From: a virus
Virus genome (UHGV): UHGV-0077748
Length of the DNA stretch: 10,441 bases
Strand: one strand, 5' to 3'
A model generated the notes under the pieces. That model was not told the origin of the DNA. It did no database searches and worked only from the letters and a program-made list of their open reading frames with translations. This document shows, one piece after another, positions 2,177 to 7,286 of this stretch. The position numbers were made by a program, and so were the translations under genes. Numbering within the stretch: position 1 is the first letter of the stretch; the number at the start of each line of letters is the position of its first letter.

Positions 2177-2286
2177 CCAGAACTTGAGTGGTTTTGGGGA
2201 TGGCGCGAATTGCAGCTGCAAGACAGCGATCGAGAAGATAAGCACCTCGACGCGTCATGCGCCAAAGCCACTTAAAGGAGACCATC

Positions 2287-2592
2287 ATGGTAACCATTGT
2301 CTGGAAAGAATCCAAAGGTACGGCAAAAAGCCGCTACAAAGCTCGCAGAGCAGAACTTATTGCCGAGCGACGCAGTAATGAAGCACTGGCGCGAAAAATT
2401 GCGCTAAAGCTCTCTGGTTGCGTCAGAGCAGACAAAGCAGCATCACTAGGAAGCCTTTGCTGCAAGAAGAAAGAAGAAGTCGTTCGAAAAAATAGAAGTA
2501 TTTATTACAAAGATTCAAACCCATTAGGAAACAAAATACATGCAGTCCAAAAAATAAAATTGTACAGTAAACTACCGTACGGTGCTTATTGA
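2287..2592 (+). CDS. N: N-family transcription antiterminator, phage 21-type, with N-terminal arginine-rich motif
   Basis: AAGGAG RBS 7 nt upstream of ATG 2287. Translation MVTIVWKESKGTAKSRYKARRAELIAERRSNEALARKIALKLSGCVRADKAASLGSL.. matches phage 21 N as recalled. First gene after pL/nutL. The track ORF begins at 2257 but the SD supports 2287. Confidence 0.85.
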   Translation: MVTIVWKESKGTAKSRYKARRAELIAERRSNEALARKIALKLSGCVRADKAASLGSLCCKKKEEVVRKNRSIYYKDSNPLGNKIHAVQKIKLYSKLPYGAY

Positions 2593-2594
2593 GT

Positions 2595-2933
2595 ATGCTT
2601 ATGGTGAAAAAGACTATTTATGTTAATCCTGACCGCGGACAAAACAGAAAAGTATCTGATAGAGGTCTTACATCTCGAGACAGGAGGAGAATAGCGAGAT
2701 GGGAAAAAAGGATAGCATATGCATTAAAAAACGGTGTAACACCTGGATTTAATGCTATAGATGACGGTCCTGAATATAAGATTAATGAAGAACCAATGGA
2801 CAAAGTTGACAAAGCATTAGCAACACCATTTCCTCGCGATGTCGAAAAAATTGAAGATGAAAAATATGAGGATGTAATGCACAGAGTTGTTAATCACGCT
2901 CACCAACGAAATCCAAATAAAAAATGGTCATAG
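2595..2933 (+). CDS. Hypothetical protein (about 112 aa), AT-rich moron gene A; Arg-rich segment SRDRRRIARWEKR
   Basis: Open frame ending at TAG 2931-2933 inside a terminator hairpin. Start uncertain (ATG 2595 or 2601, weak SD; possibly coupled to the N stop). Visibly lower GC than flanking phage core genes. No family recognised. Confidence 0.6.
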   Translation: MLMVKKTIYVNPDRGQNRKVSDRGLTSRDRRRIARWEKRIAYALKNGVTPGFNAIDDGPEYKINEEPMDKVDKALATPFPRDVEKIEDEKYEDVMHRVVNHAHQRNPNKKWS

Positions 2934-2954
2934 CCCACTTCGGTGGGTTTTTTA
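2932..2954 (+). terminator. Intrinsic terminator (UUCG-tetraloop hairpin plus T-run)
   Basis: cccac-TTCG-gtggg followed by TTTTTTATT. Confidence 0.7.
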
Positions 2955-3069
2955 TTGTCTGAACAAACCTAATTTACTACCGCAAGCCACGCAGTGAAAT
3001 GGGTGTGACTTGCTCAGGCCGCCAGAAAATGAAATTAGGCAGCAAACCACTTATTTGAGAGGAATTAAT

Positions 3070-3693
3070 ATGTCATCAATCCGCTTAACTACGAGAATGA
3101 AAGAGGAAATCGCTCGTAACGCTTTAATTAAGTCTGGGGTTTTCACTGAACTTGAAGAAGTAACAAAGTTAAAGAACCAGCTTGCACTTGACGCCAGAGT
3201 TATTGCGTTTGGCGGTAAAAAGAAAACTGAGGAAGTGGATCAGTTATCATCCAAGTTGGTAGCTATAAGTGAAGAACTTGGAAAGATGGGATGTTCATTT
3301 TACTCATACGATGTTAGTTCTACTTCAATTTATCTGACTGTATCTGGCAGAAGGGTTGGATGGCATTCATATGGGAAAGACGGCAACGGCGAAGATATAT
3401 TGCTCCCTACTCCGACCAAAGATAAATGCATGTTTAGCGCAGAACACGAAATAACAAAAAGGTTTGATGAAATCTGCGCATTGCAACAAAAACTTGAAGC
3501 CAAGAAAAAGGATATCGAATCAAATGTATGGGCTGCTTTGAACTCAGTCACAACAGTTAAGCGACTTATTGAAGTTTGGCCTGAAAGCAAAGAATTGCTA
3601 CCAAAAGAAGCAGATAAAGCAAGTACAGCACTTCCTGCTTTACGGGTAGAAGATTTGAATAAGATGATTGGACTTCCTTCCGAGGCCGCATAG
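3070..3693 (+). CDS. Hypothetical protein (207 aa), AT-rich moron gene B
   Basis: ATG 3070 preceded by GAGAGG; translation MSSIRLTTRMKEEIARNALIKSGVFTELEEV..GRRVGWHSYGKDGNGEDILLPTPTKDKCMF..; no family recognised. The track start at 3010 looks like upstream read-through of the frame. Confidence 0.7.
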   Translation: MSSIRLTTRMKEEIARNALIKSGVFTELEEVTKLKNQLALDARVIAFGGKKKTEEVDQLSSKLVAISEELGKMGCSFYSYDVSSTSIYLTVSGRRVGWHSYGKDGNGEDILLPTPTKDKCMFSAEHEITKRFDEICALQQKLEAKKKDIESNVWAALNSVTTVKRLIEVWPESKELLPKEADKASTALPALRVEDLNKMIGLPSEAA

Positions 3694-3709
3694 TCGGCCT
3701 TTATTTTTG
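3682..3709 (+). terminator. Terminator-like hairpin overlapping the gene B stop codon
   Basis: Stem gaggccg / cggcctt with the stop codon TAG in the loop, followed by TTTATTTTT. Confidence 0.55.
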
Positions 3710-3735
3710 GCATAAACAACAGAATAAACACTGCA

Positions 3736-3767
3736 CTGTGTATTCATTCCAACGAGTGAATACACGG
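3736..3767. repeat. Near-perfect inverted repeat (12-bp arms, 4-nt spacer CAAC): gtgtattcattc-caac-gagtgaatacac
   Basis: Seen directly; 11 of 12 arm positions are Watson-Crick complementary and the twelfth is a G-U pair as RNA. Lies in the spacer between two terminators, abutting GGAG at 3766-3769. Confidence 0.6.
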
Positions 3768-3827
3768 AGCAATGTCGCTCGTAACTAAACAGGAGCCGAC
3801 TTGTTCTGATTATTGGAAATCTTCTTT

Positions 3828-3854
3828 GCCCTCCAGTGTGAGGGCAATTTTTTT
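3828..3854 (+). terminator. Intrinsic terminator immediately upstream of the gene C RBS
   Basis: gccctc-cagtgt-gagggc followed by AATTTTTTT; the SD GGAGG (3859-3863) and ATG 3867 follow directly. Confidence 0.65.
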
Positions 3855-3866
3855 GACGGAGGATAT

Positions 3867-4835
3867 ATGAGTGAAGTAACAGATTTAGTTGTTATTGAAA
3901 AAGCAAATGCAATGACTGTATTTCAGTCTGCCGACCAGATTGAAGAAATCCTTCAAAGGGTTGAACGTGAAGTTATGTCCTTTGTGCCTGATATCACAAC
4001 GGCAAAGGGCAGAAAGGAGATCGCTTCTCTGGCGTATAAAGTTGCGCAGACGAAAACATATCTCGATGGTCTTGGCAAAGACCTTGTTGCTGAACTGAAG
4101 GAAATTCCAAAGCTAATTGATGCCAACCGCAAGACAGTGCGTGATCGCCTTGATGAGCTGAAAGCCAAGGCGCGCCAGCCTCTTACTGATTATGAGGAGG
4201 AACAGGCACGGATTAAAGCCGAAGAAGAAGCTAAGGCAGCAGCTGAAGCTCTCGCAAAGCAAATTGAGTCTGACCATGAAATAGCGATTTTGATGGATCG
4301 CGAATTTGACCGCCAAAGAGAAGAGGCAAGACTCAAAGCGGAGCAGGAAAAGCGAGAGCATGAAGAACGCTTAAAAAGAGAAGCTGAAGAGAAAGCCAGA
4401 GCAGAAGCCGAAGCAAAGGCAAAAGCCGAAATTGAAGCAGCAGCAAGGCGAGAAGCAGAAGCTAAGGCCGCAGCGGAACGTGCAGAGCGTGAACGCATTG
4501 AAGCCGAGCAACGAGCACAGCGCGAAGCAAAAGAGGCAGCAGAACGAGCTGAAAGAGAAAAGCAGGCGGCAATTGAAGCAGAACGCCGAAAAGCACAGGA
4601 GGAGGCTGAACGAATCCGGCGCGAGGCTGAAGCAAAAGAGCAAGCCAGAATAGCAGAAGAAAAAAGAATCAAGGAAGAAGAAGAGTGTAGAGCAAAGGAT
4701 AAAGCTCACCGGAAAGAAGTAAATAACAAAATACTTGCTGACCTTATCAAGGTTGGCGCATCAGAAGATGTTGCTAAAAATATCATAACAGCCATCGTAA
4801 AAGGCGAAGTATTCGCAACAAAAATAACCTACTAA
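3867..4835 (+). CDS. Hypothetical phage early protein (322 aa): about 115-aa N-terminal domain plus about 170-aa E/A/K/R-rich charged helical (single alpha-helix / coiled-coil-like) repeat region
   Basis: ATG 3867 with GGAGG SD. Translation MSEVTDLVVIEKANAMTVFQSADQIEEILQRV.. then ..EEAKAAAEALAKQ..REAEEKARAEAEAKAKAEIEAAARREAEAKAAAERAERERIEAEQRAQREAKEAAERAEREKQAAIEAERRKAQEEAERIRREAEAKEQARIAEEKRIKEEEE... The track start at 3813 is TTG; the internal ATG is preferred. Confidence 0.75.
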   Translation: MSEVTDLVVIEKANAMTVFQSADQIEEILQRVEREVMSFVPDITTAKGRKEIASLAYKVAQTKTYLDGLGKDLVAELKEIPKLIDANRKTVRDRLDELKAKARQPLTDYEEEQARIKAEEEAKAAAEALAKQIESDHEIAILMDREFDRQREEARLKAEQEKREHEERLKREAEEKARAEAEAKAKAEIEAAARREAEAKAAAERAERERIEAEQRAQREAKEAAERAEREKQAAIEAERRKAQEEAERIRREAEAKEQARIAEEKRIKEEEECRAKDKAHRKEVNNKILADLIKVGASEDVAKNIITAIVKGEVFATKITY

Positions 4836-4859
4836 TAAAACCAACATAAGGAACCACCC

Positions 4860-5006
4860 ATGATTTACGCAATCGCGGGAGGCGCTCGCATGGGTGCCTT
4901 CCAATTAAATGAATCTTTACTTGAACGAATCACCCGTAAATTACGTGACGGATGGAAACGACTCATCGACGTACTTAATCAGCCAGGAGTTCCAAAAAAT
5001 GGATAA
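4860..5006 (+). CDS. cIII: CIII protein (FtsH/HflB inhibitor that stabilises CII)
   Basis: 48-aa ORF below the track's length cutoff: MIYAIAGGARMGAFQLNESLLERITRKLRDGWKRLIDVLNQPGVPKNG. Central segment matches lambda CIII as recalled (..ESLLERITRKLRDGWKRLIDILNQPGVPKNG..). AAGGA SD upstream. Confidence 0.85.
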   Translation: MIYAIAGGARMGAFQLNESLLERITRKLRDGWKRLIDVLNQPGVPKNG

Positions 5007-5112
5007 AACACTTATGGCTATTCAGACTAAATTCACTATCGCCACTTTTATTGGCGATGAAAAGATGTTTCGTGAGGCCGTCGAAGCCTACAGAAAATGG
5101 AGGTCTAAATGA
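4999..5112 (+). CDS. kil: Kil-like host cell-division inhibitor (37 aa)
   Basis: ATG 4999 with AGGAG 9 nt upstream, overlapping the cIII 3' end. MDKTLMAIQTKFTIATFIGDEKMFREAVEAYRKWRSK resembles lambda Kil (MDQTLMAIQTKFTIATFIGDEKMFREAVDAYKKW..) as recalled. Immediately downstream of cIII as in lambda. The longer track ORF from 4909 is upstream read-through. Confidence 0.55.
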   Translation: MDKTLMAIQTKFTIATFIGDEKMFREAVEAYRKWRSK

Positions 5113-5297
5113 TTCCGGTAGAGCTGGCGAAAACTCCAGAGTTAAGTCGATTAAAAAGAGAATATCACATTGCTGAGGCTCGTTACTGGCGTAAAGCGGG
5201 AGATAAATCAAAGAAACAACTTTGTTTATGGCAAGCACAAAGAGAGCGCATGAATGAGCGCGAATTTCTTTCCTCCCCATCCGAATTACCATTCTGA
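5109..5297 (+). CDS. Hypothetical protein (62 aa), translationally coupled to kil (ATGA overlap)
   Basis: MIPVELAKTPELSRLKREYHIAEARYWRKAGDKSKKQLCLWQAQRERMNEREFLSSPSELPF; occupies the position of gam in lambda but is not Gam-like. Confidence 0.55.
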   Translation: MIPVELAKTPELSRLKREYHIAEARYWRKAGDKSKKQLCLWQAQRERMNEREFLSSPSELPF

Positions 5298-5305
5298 GGT
5301 GAATT

Positions 5306-6013
5306 ATGGATTTGAATAAATTCGATGAGCCATTCAGCCCTGAAGATATCGAATGGCGAATACAGCAAAGCGGTAAAACACGCGATGGCAAGGTGTGGGC
5401 TATGGTGCTGGCTTATGTCACGAACCGGGCAATCATGAAACGCCTGGACGATGTTTGCGGCAAAGCAGGATGGCGCAATGAATACCGCGATATTCCCAAC
5501 AACGGCGGAGTTGAATGCGGCATATCAATCAAGATTGATTCCGAATGGGTAACCAAATGGGATGCTGCTGAAAACACGCAGGTAGAAGCCGTCAAAGGTG
5601 GTCGTTCCGGTGCAATGAAGCGCGCTGCCGTTCAGTGGGGAATCGGTCGGTATCTGTATAACCTTGAGGAAGGTTTCGCACAAACATCTCTCGATAAAAA
5701 GCAGGGATGGCACAGGGCAAAACTGAAAGATGGAACAGGATTTTACTGGCTCCCTCCATCGCTTCCGGGATGGGCAATCCCAGCATCAGATAACAAACCA
5801 TCACCAGAAAATACCAACCAGAAATCTCCATCGGTTGACTGCGAACAAATCCTGAAAGACTTCAGCGATTATGCGTCAACAGAAACTGACAAGAAAAAAC
5901 TCATCGAGCGTTATCAGCGTGACTGGCAATTAATGGCTGGCAACGAGGAGGCGCAGGCTAAATGCGTTCAGGTAATGAACATCAGAGTTAACGAACTAAA
6001 ACAGGCGGCATAA
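5306..6013 (+). CDS. Single-strand annealing protein, Rad52/Sak-type recombinase (tentative family assignment)
   Basis: 235 aa; GAGGTG SD. Motif ..EAVKGGRSGAMKRAAVQWGIGRYLY.. resembles the conserved Rad52-family core as recalled ([21 protein letters not shown]). Adjacent to an SSB gene as is common for phage SSAPs. Confidence 0.65.
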   Translation: MDLNKFDEPFSPEDIEWRIQQSGKTRDGKVWAMVLAYVTNRAIMKRLDDVCGKAGWRNEYRDIPNNGGVECGISIKIDSEWVTKWDAAENTQVEAVKGGRSGAMKRAAVQWGIGRYLYNLEEGFAQTSLDKKQGWHRAKLKDGTGFYWLPPSLPGWAIPASDNKPSPENTNQKSPSVDCEQILKDFSDYASTETDKKKLIERYQRDWQLMAGNEEAQAKCVQVMNIRVNELKQAA

Positions 6014-6487
6014 ATGGGAAGTAGAGGCGTAAATAAGGTGATCATTATTGGTCGCCTTGGGCATGATCCAGAAATCAGATATTCACCATCAGGAACGGCA
6101 TTTGCAAACCTTACAGTTGCTACGTCAGAACAATGGCGTGATAAGCAAACTGGAGAGCAAAAGGAGCAGACGGAGTGGCACCGTGTGGTAATGAGCGGGA
6201 AACTGGCAGAAATTGCCAGCGAATATCTGCGAAAAGGCTCTGAGGTTTATCTTGAAGGCAAATTACGGACAAGAAAATGGCAGGATCAAAGCGGACAGGA
6301 TAGGTTCACTACCGAAGTCATCGTGGGCGTTGGTGGAACCATGCAAATGCTTGGTGGCAAGCAAGGAGGCAATGAACAGTCTTCACCTCAGCGAAATAAC
6401 GGTCAGCAACAAAGACAGCAATCTCAGCAGCAGGGGAATCACAGCGAACCACCTATGGATTTTGACGATTCGGATATTCCGTTCTAG
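6014..6487 (+). CDS. ssb: Single-stranded DNA-binding protein (phage-encoded SSB)
   Basis: 157 aa; N-terminal OB-fold [75 protein letters not shown].. closely parallels E. coli SSB as recalled; Gln/Gly-rich linker; acidic C-terminal tip DFDDSDIPF. Confidence 0.95.
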
Positions 6488-6496
6488 GAGCTGAAT

Positions 6497-6976
6497 ATGA
6501 AAATCTGCTCAAGATGCCATCAACAGAAGGAAGAAAGGGACTTTCAAATCAGAAGAGCATCCAGAGATGGATTAACTGCCGCTTGCCGGGCTTGCCTGGC
6601 TGAATACGACAAAGAACGCGCTGGATTGCCACATCGAGTATCAGCAAGGAGAGAATATCAATCATCGGAACGCGGAAGAGAACGGTGTAACGCAGCCAAA
6701 AAGCGGTTCATTCAGAGCAACCCATGGAAAAGAAAAGCCCACATCATTGTGGGTAATTTTTTGCGCGACGGTAAGCTAATCCGACCACCACAATGTGAGT
6801 GCTGCGGATCAGAATGTAAACCACAGGCGCACCACTGCGACTACAGCAAACCAACCGATGTGATGTGGCTCTGCAAGTCATGTCATGTCGAGTGGCACAA
6901 ACATAACAAACCTATCTACCCAGACGAGGAACCAGTAACTCTCCCCTTCCCTCGTCACGCTATTCACGCAATTTAA
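6497..6976 (+). CDS. HNH-family endonuclease-like protein with N-terminal CxxC..CxxC zinc ribbon
   Basis: 159 aa; AGGAG SD. N-terminal CSRCHQQ..AACRAC; C-terminal CECCGSEC..AHHCDYSKPTDVMWLCKSCHVEWH, fitting the HNH (His-Me finger) pattern HH..N/D..CxxCH..H. Confidence 0.6.
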   Translation: MKICSRCHQQKEERDFQIRRASRDGLTAACRACLAEYDKERAGLPHRVSARREYQSSERGRERCNAAKKRFIQSNPWKRKAHIIVGNFLRDGKLIRPPQCECCGSECKPQAHHCDYSKPTDVMWLCKSCHVEWHKHNKPIYPDEEPVTLPFPRHAIHAI

Positions 6977-6989
6977 TCAGGAGAAAATC

Positions 6990-7286
6990 ATGCCAGCGCC
7001 TCTGTATGGTGCGGATGACGCGCGCCGCTGTTCCGGCAATTCCGTATCGGAGGTGCTGGATAAATTCAGAAAAAACTACGACCTGATAATGTCGCTACCG
7101 CAGGAAACGAAAGAGGAAAAGGAATTTCGCCACTGTATATGGCTTGCAGAGAAAGAAGAACGCGAGCGAATTTACCAGACATCAATCCGACCATTCCGCA
7201 AAGCCACATATACCCACTTCCCTGAATATATCGACCCGCGCCTGCGTAATTACCGCTCACGCTATGGCGCTATCAGTAATGACTGA
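6990..7286 (+). CDS. Hypothetical protein (98 aa)
   Basis: AGGAGA SD 7 nt upstream of ATG 6990; no family recognised. Confidence 0.6.

Follow-up and report, generated by a model that had tools for sequence, protein, structure and literature searches.

The 10,441-nucleotide (nt) stretch of virus genome UHGV-0077748 analyzed here (the window; all coordinates are positions in it) covers the immunity and early-left region of a lambdoid prophage, with its pL operon on the + strand. Between the antiterminator gene N and cIII it carries three genes, here called A, B, and C, which an earlier note on this DNA had described as a single moron cluster of no recognizable family and as candidates for a possibly new exclusion function. 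Our analysis indicates that the N-cIII interval is probably made up of three independently assorting early-left (pL) modules, namely nun, an Nmad5 gene, and an Agt/Mog homologue, rather than one functional cluster. The exclusion function that was looked for is present, but by sequence it is the textbook Nun system of phage HK022, already characterized and not new. All three genes belong to recognizable families (A, Nun; B, Pfam Nmad5; C, PHROG 1376, a homologue of phi80 agt), those of B and C being already known but lacking established biochemistry.

The three open reading frames (ORFs) of 112, 207, and 322 amino acids (aa) were found between N and cIII as the note had described them. The interval and its borders contain the following features:

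2287-2592, + strand: N antiterminator gene of phage-21 type, containing GTAKSRYKARRAELIAERR; its last ~55 nt hold the nun promoter
2540-2568, + strand: predicted promoter PNun, with -35 hexamer ATGCAG at 2540-2545, -10 hexamer TACAGT at 2563-2568, and TG before the -10
2595-2933, + strand: gene A, nun, 112 aa
2932-2956, + strand: terminator-like hairpin (2932-2949) and T-run, -10.3 kcal/mol, closing the nun unit
3070-3693, + strand: gene B, standalone Nmad5-family gene, 207 aa
3682-3709, + strand: terminator-like hairpin (3682-3701) and T-run, -11.0 kcal/mol, overlapping the end of gene B
3714-3854, + strand: boundary sequence of the Sf6 bsq4 type, with a 14-bp-stem hairpin at 3733-3766 and a tL2A-like terminator at 3826-3847 followed by seven Ts
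3867-4835, + strand: gene C, Agt/Mog family, 322 aa
4860-5006, + strand: cIII (Pfam Lambda_CIII, E-value 1.9e-24), the downstream border of the interval

Genes A and B are AT-rich, as had been observed (36.9% and 40.2% GC, against 48-49% for erf, ssb, and the rest), whereas gene C is not (46.2%; whole window, 46.1%). Over positions 2200-5200 the window shares 99.9% identity with a prophage in E. coli PI24 (NZ_CP074012), the end of which adjoins torI and dsdC.

Gene A and the Nun exclusion system

Gene A is identical to the Nun protein of HK022 at 110 of its 112 residues (98.2%) and to those of mEp235 and mEpX1 at 100% (tblastn), and it matches PHROG 5632, "Nun-like transcription termination factor," from end to end (E-value 8.5e-71). 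Compared with chain N of PDB entry 6ALG, which is Nun in an E. coli RNA polymerase elongation complex, 107 of 109 residues are identical (E-value 8e-71); this 109-residue protein aligns from V4 of gene A, which fits a start at the ATG at 2601. The arginine-rich motif is also recognizable, as residues 22-47 match the 26-residue boxB-binding Nun peptide of 1HJI (E-value 5e-11), and the C-terminus, VVNHAHQRNPNKKWS, is identical to the arrest segment of HK022 Nun. Every residue listed for arrest (PMC5386594) is kept, namely H93, R94, N97, H98, H100, R102, K106, K107, and W108, and four of these (H98, K106, K107, and W108) are important in vivo (PMC5386594). The two substitutions relative to HK022 Nun lie outside both the match to the 1HJI peptide and the C-terminal arrest motif. 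A further profile, PHROG 12139, matched the Nun C-terminus only.

HK022 Nun has been characterized since the 1980s. Its arginine-rich motif binds lambda nut boxB RNA, and its C-terminal segment enters the polymerase and blocks translocation (PMC5386594). A passage of that paper citing King et al. 2000 describes constitutive expression of nun from the repressed prophage. Working in the same way, the prophage in the window would make Nun constitutively while repressed, as HK022 does; the arginine-rich motif would bind the boxB RNA hairpin of a superinfecting lambda-type phage, and the C-terminal segment would wedge into RNA polymerase and stop translocation, so that the invader's early transcripts would be arrested. 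Gene A is, as judged from its sequence, the superinfection-exclusion gene of this prophage against lambda-type phages. The earlier statement that no rex- or sie-like gene is present overlooks Nun, itself the exclusion function. As candidates for exclusion or anti-defense, the three genes fare differently: the proposal holds for A, where the function is already known, and is unsupported for B and C.

DNA homology to HK022 (97%) covers 2475-2950 and begins 120 nt upstream of nun. The nun promoter hexamers annotated in phage O276, which has the HK022 immunity region, recur in the window unchanged and at the same distance from nun, and 123 of 125 upstream bases are identical to O276. The assignment of PNun as a predicted promoter rests on this annotation of the O276 record and on the citation of King et al. 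2000, and it is a point against the assignment that a generic sigma-70 scan did not flag the site, which has a weak -35. After the gene, HK022 has a different hairpin and T-run at the same place. We regard nun as a true moron, because it combines its own predicted promoter, gene, and terminator with the lowest GC in the region. Of the three features of a moron (own promoter, own terminator, and deviant base composition), nun shows all, gene B combines a terminator with low GC and no promoter that we found, and gene C lacks a promoter and terminator of its own and has an ordinary GC. The hairpin said to follow each gene is present after A (2932-2949) and B (3682-3701) but not after C, where 4825-4865 folds at only -0.9 kcal/mol. 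The third hairpin, at 3826-3847 with its seven Ts, lies upstream of C and corresponds to tL2A of Sf6.

The left part of the window contains the following elements of the immunity region:

643-939, - strand: cII
~1010-1045, - strand: nutR, with boxA TGCTCTTTAAC and boxB CACCTCTAACCGGGTG
1055-1240, - strand: cro
1321-1971, + strand: P22-c2-like repressor gene
2137-2176, + strand: nutL, with boxA GCTCTTTAAC at 2137-2146 and the phage-21-type boxB hairpin TCTCAACCTAACCGTTGAGA at 2157-2176

The N protein belongs to PHROG 271 (N-like, E-value 1e-31). Its residues 1-95 share 80% identity with phage 21 N, and its identity to the N proteins of mEpX1 and mEp235 is 99-100%. The nutL pattern occurs once in the window, its boxB hairpin folding at -9.3 kcal/mol (z -2.9). 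Both nutL and nutR have boxB sequences of the phage-21 type, and no lambda-type boxB was found anywhere in the window, even at three mismatches. Since N and the nut sites are of the phage-21 type, the resident phage should escape, and so be immune to, its own Nun.

The closest known systems are the Nun loci of HK022, mEp235, mEpX1, and HK75, and HK022-type nun is likewise located just downstream of pL and is followed by a terminator. Antitermination in HK022 depends on put RNA, and an N gene is absent, whereas in the window, as in mEp235 and mEpX1, nun is found directly behind an intact phage-21-type N. What this prophage newly provides is only a natural case of that arrangement, which had already been sequenced in mEp235 and mEpX1. 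We also compared window positions 2350-2592 with the putL-nun interval of HK022, HK75, and O276. By tblastn, the window N protein matches a non-coding stretch upstream of HK022 nun (57% over N residues 22-101), so that a decayed N gene seems to survive around putL in HK022. The pairing of N with nun may be older than the arrangement in HK022.

The same N-tL2A position is occupied in some related loci by a different protein with Nun features. Locus L035 (5052-5330), and also L019 and L030, have a 92-aa ORF without a Pfam match, in which an arginine-rich N-terminus, NSRNRRREARKAERAEKE, is joined to the Nun C-terminal arrest motif, FKVVNHAHQRNPKKKW. This ORF may be a Nun variant aimed at another boxB and hence at other phages.

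The accessory slot between N and tL2A

The ~160-bp sequence between genes B and C occurs in 2,240 of 5,426 complete E. coli genomes, beside quite different genes. It corresponds to the boundary sequence annotated in Sf6 as bsq4 together with tL2A, which in Sf6 lie just upstream of gene 33, and it is 96-100% identical to HK022, where IS903 splits it. Both of its hairpins fold well, the one at 3733-3766 at -22.8 kcal/mol (z -7.1) and the tL2A-like terminator at -13.2 kcal/mol. The former consists of a perfect 14-bp stem, with no T-run and no Rfam match. In HK022 (our locus L004, 2868-2906 and 3964-4071) the boundary sequence contains an insertion of ~1,057 bp, annotated as IS903, and the site is uninterrupted in the window (3714-3852). 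The 9 bp at 3744-3752 are found on both sides of the HK022 insertion, which fits a target-site duplication.

The comparison of the N-cIII interval across relatives that the earlier note had called for showed that it is indeed variable, up to tL2A. We counted architectures in 53 viral loci with gene C and a recognizable repressor, using a crude clustering of ORFs, and obtained 71 ORF families in 51 distinct architectures, with a repressor-to-C distance of 1.25-4.0 kb. The families found in the slot in relatives include Ral (16 of 80 loci), the P22 gp17 family (7 of 80), Nmad5 (10 loci), DUF2528 (4), and Nun (2). This variable part lies upstream of tL2A; gene C lies downstream of it, fixed beside cIII. 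The slot between N and tL2A is thus a hypervariable accessory hotspot, and the comparison delimits it, from N to the conserved tL2A boundary sequence. Two viral contigs (L050 and L056) directly exemplify the replacement of a module in this slot, as they have the same repressor, N, and nun as the window (99-100%) with other small genes in place of B. The N-cIII regions of lambda and P22 lie at the equivalent place in the operon and have a tL2A-type terminator and boundary sequence as the window does, but their accessory genes ral, sieB, ea10, and gene 17 are all absent from it.

Genes of the slot assort independently. Among the 5,426 E. coli genomes, nun was found in 219, gene B in 209, and gene C in 495; the B-C junction was present in 42, and the whole A-B-C arrangement in a single genome. 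The three genes are accordingly not one cluster, as they had been taken to be, and we rejected B and C as an obligate pair, since they are mostly found apart.

These counts bear on the proposal that all three genes jointly, or just the pair of B and C, form a new prophage-expressed superinfection-exclusion, anti-restriction, or anti-defense system. It has some points in its favor: the hotspot carries Ral, P22 gp17-family, and SieB-annotated genes in relatives, gene B is AT-rich, B and C are adjacent in those 42 genomes, and a distant Nmad5 protein is tied genetically to the Tmn defense and is toxic when cloned (PMC11846954). We nevertheless consider it unlikely. Gene A is the known Nun, and the PADLOC-DB 2.0 defense models gave no hit for A or B and only LmuB for C, at an E-value of 0.033 that marks a non-significant coiled-coil artifact; NCBIfam also returned nothing for A, B, or C. 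Neither B nor C has a promoter upstream, and both have terminators upstream, so that expression in the lysogen is not expected. Homologues of B occur in virulent phages and C-family genes track recombination genes, and both of these contexts also argue against a prophage defense system.

The comparative work thereby brings out, besides the slot itself, two widespread phage families without known biochemistry. Between them, the Agt/Mog family is the better lead, though a modest one. As its position beside recombination genes is conserved in phages of Enterobacteria, Pseudomonas, Acinetobacter, and Serratia, a recombination-related role is directly testable.

Gene B, a standalone Nmad5 protein

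Gene B matches the Pfam family Nmad5 (PF18757) with an E-value of 9e-72 (241.9 bits against a cut-off of 27), its residues 4-203 covering positions 1-206 of the 206-position model, and its RefSeq name is "Nmad5 family putative nucleotide modification protein." An AlphaFold2 (AF2) model built with 21 homologues reached a predicted local distance difference test score (pLDDT) of 84.5 and a predicted template modeling score (pTM) of 0.68. It shows three long N-terminal helices, a beta-hairpin, a long helix, a disordered linker, and a short conserved terminal helix. The model has no resemblance to any solved enzyme, and a Foldseek search against viral models returned only other Nmad5 proteins of unknown function (E-values down to 3.5e-13); gene B thus shares its predicted fold with other viral Nmad5 proteins. 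Members of the family include Dhillonvirus SM_S22 CDS6, eiAU gp32, and Pollock gp49. Most invariant residues are G, P, W, R, or K, and they form no catalytic-looking cluster. Gene B also has the conserved C-terminal core of the family, made of a K/R-R..WPE motif and a terminal LP.L.V..LN..G.P peptide, which in gene B reads LPALRVEDLNKMIGLP.

Homologues of gene B immediately follow the repressor gene in prophages of Serratia and Providencia, and in virulent phages they lie inside clusters for replication or nucleotide metabolism. The N4-like phage Pollock has the order thymidylate synthase, B homologue (gp49), gp42-like exonuclease, primase; and Edwardsiella phage eiAU has its homologue (gp32) after the helicase-primase gene. 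In SPN3UB, a Tgt-like gene and DinI stand on either side of the homologue. Partial homologues occur in the Pseudomonas phages M6 and PAE1. Unlike some of these relatives, gene B is a standalone protein at the start of a lambdoid pL operon and has no neighbors of nucleotide metabolism; no nucleotide or base-modification genes were found in the N-cIII interval or in the rest of the window.

The Pfam name, "nucleotide modification associated domain 5," suggests a part for gene B in the chemical modification of bases in phage DNA. The strength of the Pfam match speaks for this, as do some of the contexts: M6, which has a partial homologue as PAE1 does, is reported to contain hypermodified thymidines, the SPN3UB homologue is two genes from an annotated queuine tRNA-ribosyltransferase, and the Pollock homologue is beside thymidylate synthase. 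The surroundings and structure of gene B itself make such a role quite improbable. The N-cIII interval has no kinase, glycosyltransferase, aGPT-Pplase, Tgt/DpdA, or thymidylate synthase gene, and within the PI24 prophage just one such gene lies at all near, in the nin region ~5 kb away, encoding a common N6-adenine methyltransferase. No gene of these kinds accompanies the homologues in the Serratia and Providencia prophages either. In addition, the protein has no conserved motif of a catalytic type, and its fold, a helical bundle with a beta-hairpin, is unlike that of any solved enzyme. We favor a different reading, in which gene B is most likely a non-enzymatic helical protein that acts on phage DNA metabolism or in host interference.

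With regard to expression, no promoter-like site was found between 2950 and 3070, upstream of gene B, and terminators flank the gene on both sides. Being without its own promoter and enclosed by terminators, gene B would depend on N and on the lytic cycle, and most likely its expression is confined to lytic growth, where N-antiterminated transcription from pL would reach it.

The only experimental study of an Nmad5 protein that we found in the literature concerns Dhillonvirus nmad5 (PMC11846954). There, the phage escapes the Tmn defense through a single K-to-E change but not when the gene is deleted, and cloning the gene proved toxic (PMC11846954). The protein concerned, CDS6 of Dhillonvirus SM_S22, has 334 aa, and gene B aligns to its C-terminal half only, with 31% identity. 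Its Tmn-escape residue, K296, aligns with R165 of gene B, within a nearly invariant K-R pair that precedes the invariant WPE. Two considerations weigh against our reading of gene B as a factor of DNA metabolism or host interference. The Dhillonvirus functional data are ambiguous and come from a distant homologue, and gene B is AT-rich and located in a hotspot shared with Ral and gp17, which leaves room for an anti-defense role.

Gene C, the Agt/Mog family, and the recombination module

Gene C has the same length as phi80 agt (322 aa), and the two share 51% identity throughout (BLASTP E-value 1e-63). Gene C is also homologous to Sf6 gene 33 (its N-terminal domain is ~54% identical to D3 Orf53), and both Sf6 gp33 and D3 Orf53 count as further homologues. 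Three parts make up gene C: residues ~1-105 are a conserved N-terminal domain and residues 107-295 a long charged helix, followed by a small C-terminal domain, also conserved, with ..ITY at its end. The AF2 model agrees with this, giving a small helical N-terminal domain, a single helix at 107-295, and a small C-terminal domain. Among close relatives the helix varies in length, and the proteins range from 245 to 333 aa. Gene C has no hydrophobic segment (maximum 19-residue Kyte-Doolittle hydropathy, KD19, of 1.03) and a pI of 5.4. It would be a cytoplasmic protein in which two small conserved end domains are joined by a long helical spacer of variable length.

Database names, such as the RefSeq "cell envelope biogenesis protein TolA," would make gene C a TolA-like protein of the cell envelope, which might for example block the entry of other phages. 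This is extremely improbable, and we rejected it, as the protein has no signal peptide or membrane anchor and no Pfam TolA hit. The length of the repeat varies among close relatives, and the resemblance appears to rest on a charged, alanine-rich helical repeat and not on a shared domain.

Gene C has no significant match in Pfam, NCBIfam, PADLOC, or PDB sequences, and Pfam scans of its N- and C-terminal parts, and then of 10 and 61 diverse members, gave only sub-threshold coiled-coil noise. A homologue search with the N-terminal domain returned mostly short fragments, and it was an exhaustive profile search that showed the family: in a library of 1.84 billion proteins, the N-terminal-domain profile matched 5,774 clusters (50% identity), with E-values ≤1e-30 for 1,919. 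The C-terminal domain (..INY or ..ITY) recurs in many of 144 family representatives, with 60 hits listed at E-values ≤1.4e-4. A resemblance to DUF1351 of Gram-positive phages had no search support and is not claimed.

Gene C is distinguished from A and B by its fixed position. It has an ordinary GC and lacks both a promoter and a terminator of its own, and the start of cIII is 25 nt beyond its stop codon. Among 80 close enterobacterial loci, C is directly followed by cIII in all 74 in which cIII was detected, with Rec genes next where these were detected. Of the 68 loci with 4.5 kb or more of sequence beyond the C start, 54 have an Abc2 homologue downstream of C. In the window, C is followed by cIII, kil, the 62-aa ORF, the Rad52/Erf-type gene, and SSB, and thus stands at the upstream edge of the recombination module. 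Downstream of cIII, the window has the following genes:

about 5002-5112, + strand: kil
5109-5297, + strand: 62-aa ORF (PHROG 1723, labelled "recombinase," E-value 1.6e-33)
5306-6013, + strand: Rad52/Erf-type annealing protein
6014-6487, + strand: SSB
6497-6976, between ssb and abc2: 159-aa ORF rich in CxxC pairs, containing MKICSRCHQQKEERDF
6990-7286, + strand: Abc2-type anti-RecBCD protein

The C family is almost always found next to phage recombination genes, and its more distant members have the following neighbors:

L093: RecT
L096: DUF3799 exonuclease and AAA_24 protein
L098: ERF and YqaJ
L102: YqaJ
L100: DnaQ-like exonuclease and SSB
Pseudomonas phage D3 (Orf53): Erf and YqaJ
Acinetobacter phage TCUAN1: Bet
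Serratia phage Eta: ExoVIII and Bet
L094: uninformative
Vibrio phage 1.209.O: uninformative

In phi80, agt is directly upstream of gamL, a RecT-like gene, and exo, and the record annotates agt as "anti-toxin for Gam; Mog (modifier of Gam)" and gamL as "toxic without Mog." Gene C shares with phi80 Agt its length, its three-part build, and its early-left place just upstream of recombination genes. The two loci differ in what follows, as gamL is immediately downstream of Agt in phi80, whereas the window has cIII, kil, the 62-aa ORF, the Rad52/Erf-type gene, SSB, and Abc2, and no GamL. Taken strictly, the phi80 annotation and the 51% identity would make gene C the antitoxin of a GamL-type RecBCD inhibitor. 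We think this very unlikely and rejected a dedicated role of this kind: tblastn with phi80 GamL found none in the window, in the 80 C-carrying viral loci, or in 13 other loci, and the anti-RecBCD gene here is the Abc2 homologue at 6990-7286. The absence of GamL means that the phi80 role cannot be transferred literally, and neutralizing GamL cannot be what the family does in general.

On the basis of the conserved gene neighborhood and the phi80 record annotation, gene C is most likely an accessory or scaffold of the phage recombination module, that is, of its single-strand annealing protein (SSAP), exonuclease, and anti-RecBCD functions. Several points weigh against this assignment. In lambdoid phages the neighborhood signal is partly trivial, as pL operons often contain recombination genes in any case. 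The phi80 label "antitoxin for Gam" is itself a record annotation, and GamL is missing from the loci searched. Both ends of the AF2 model also have low confidence, with a pLDDT of 41-76 in the N-terminal domain.

A broader and more tentative proposal, which we think has a limited chance of being right, is that the C family is a general, unrecognized accessory of recombination modules, with Erf, RecT, Bet, or Sak4 partners and exonucleases, possibly tempering or scaffolding the interplay with RecBCD, and that gene B is separately an early counter-defense factor or a trigger sensed by, for example, Tmn. The tempering of RecBCD is suggested here because the phi80 annotation "modifier of Gam" hints at it.

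Among the remaining features, an Rfam scan of the window gave two chance-level matches only. The 62-aa ORF at 5109-5297 is without a Pfam family and is common to only 14 of the 80 related loci. The 159-aa ORF at 6497-6976 has no gene annotated at the matching stretch of the PI24 RefSeq record, and it is present in only 9 of the 80 related loci.

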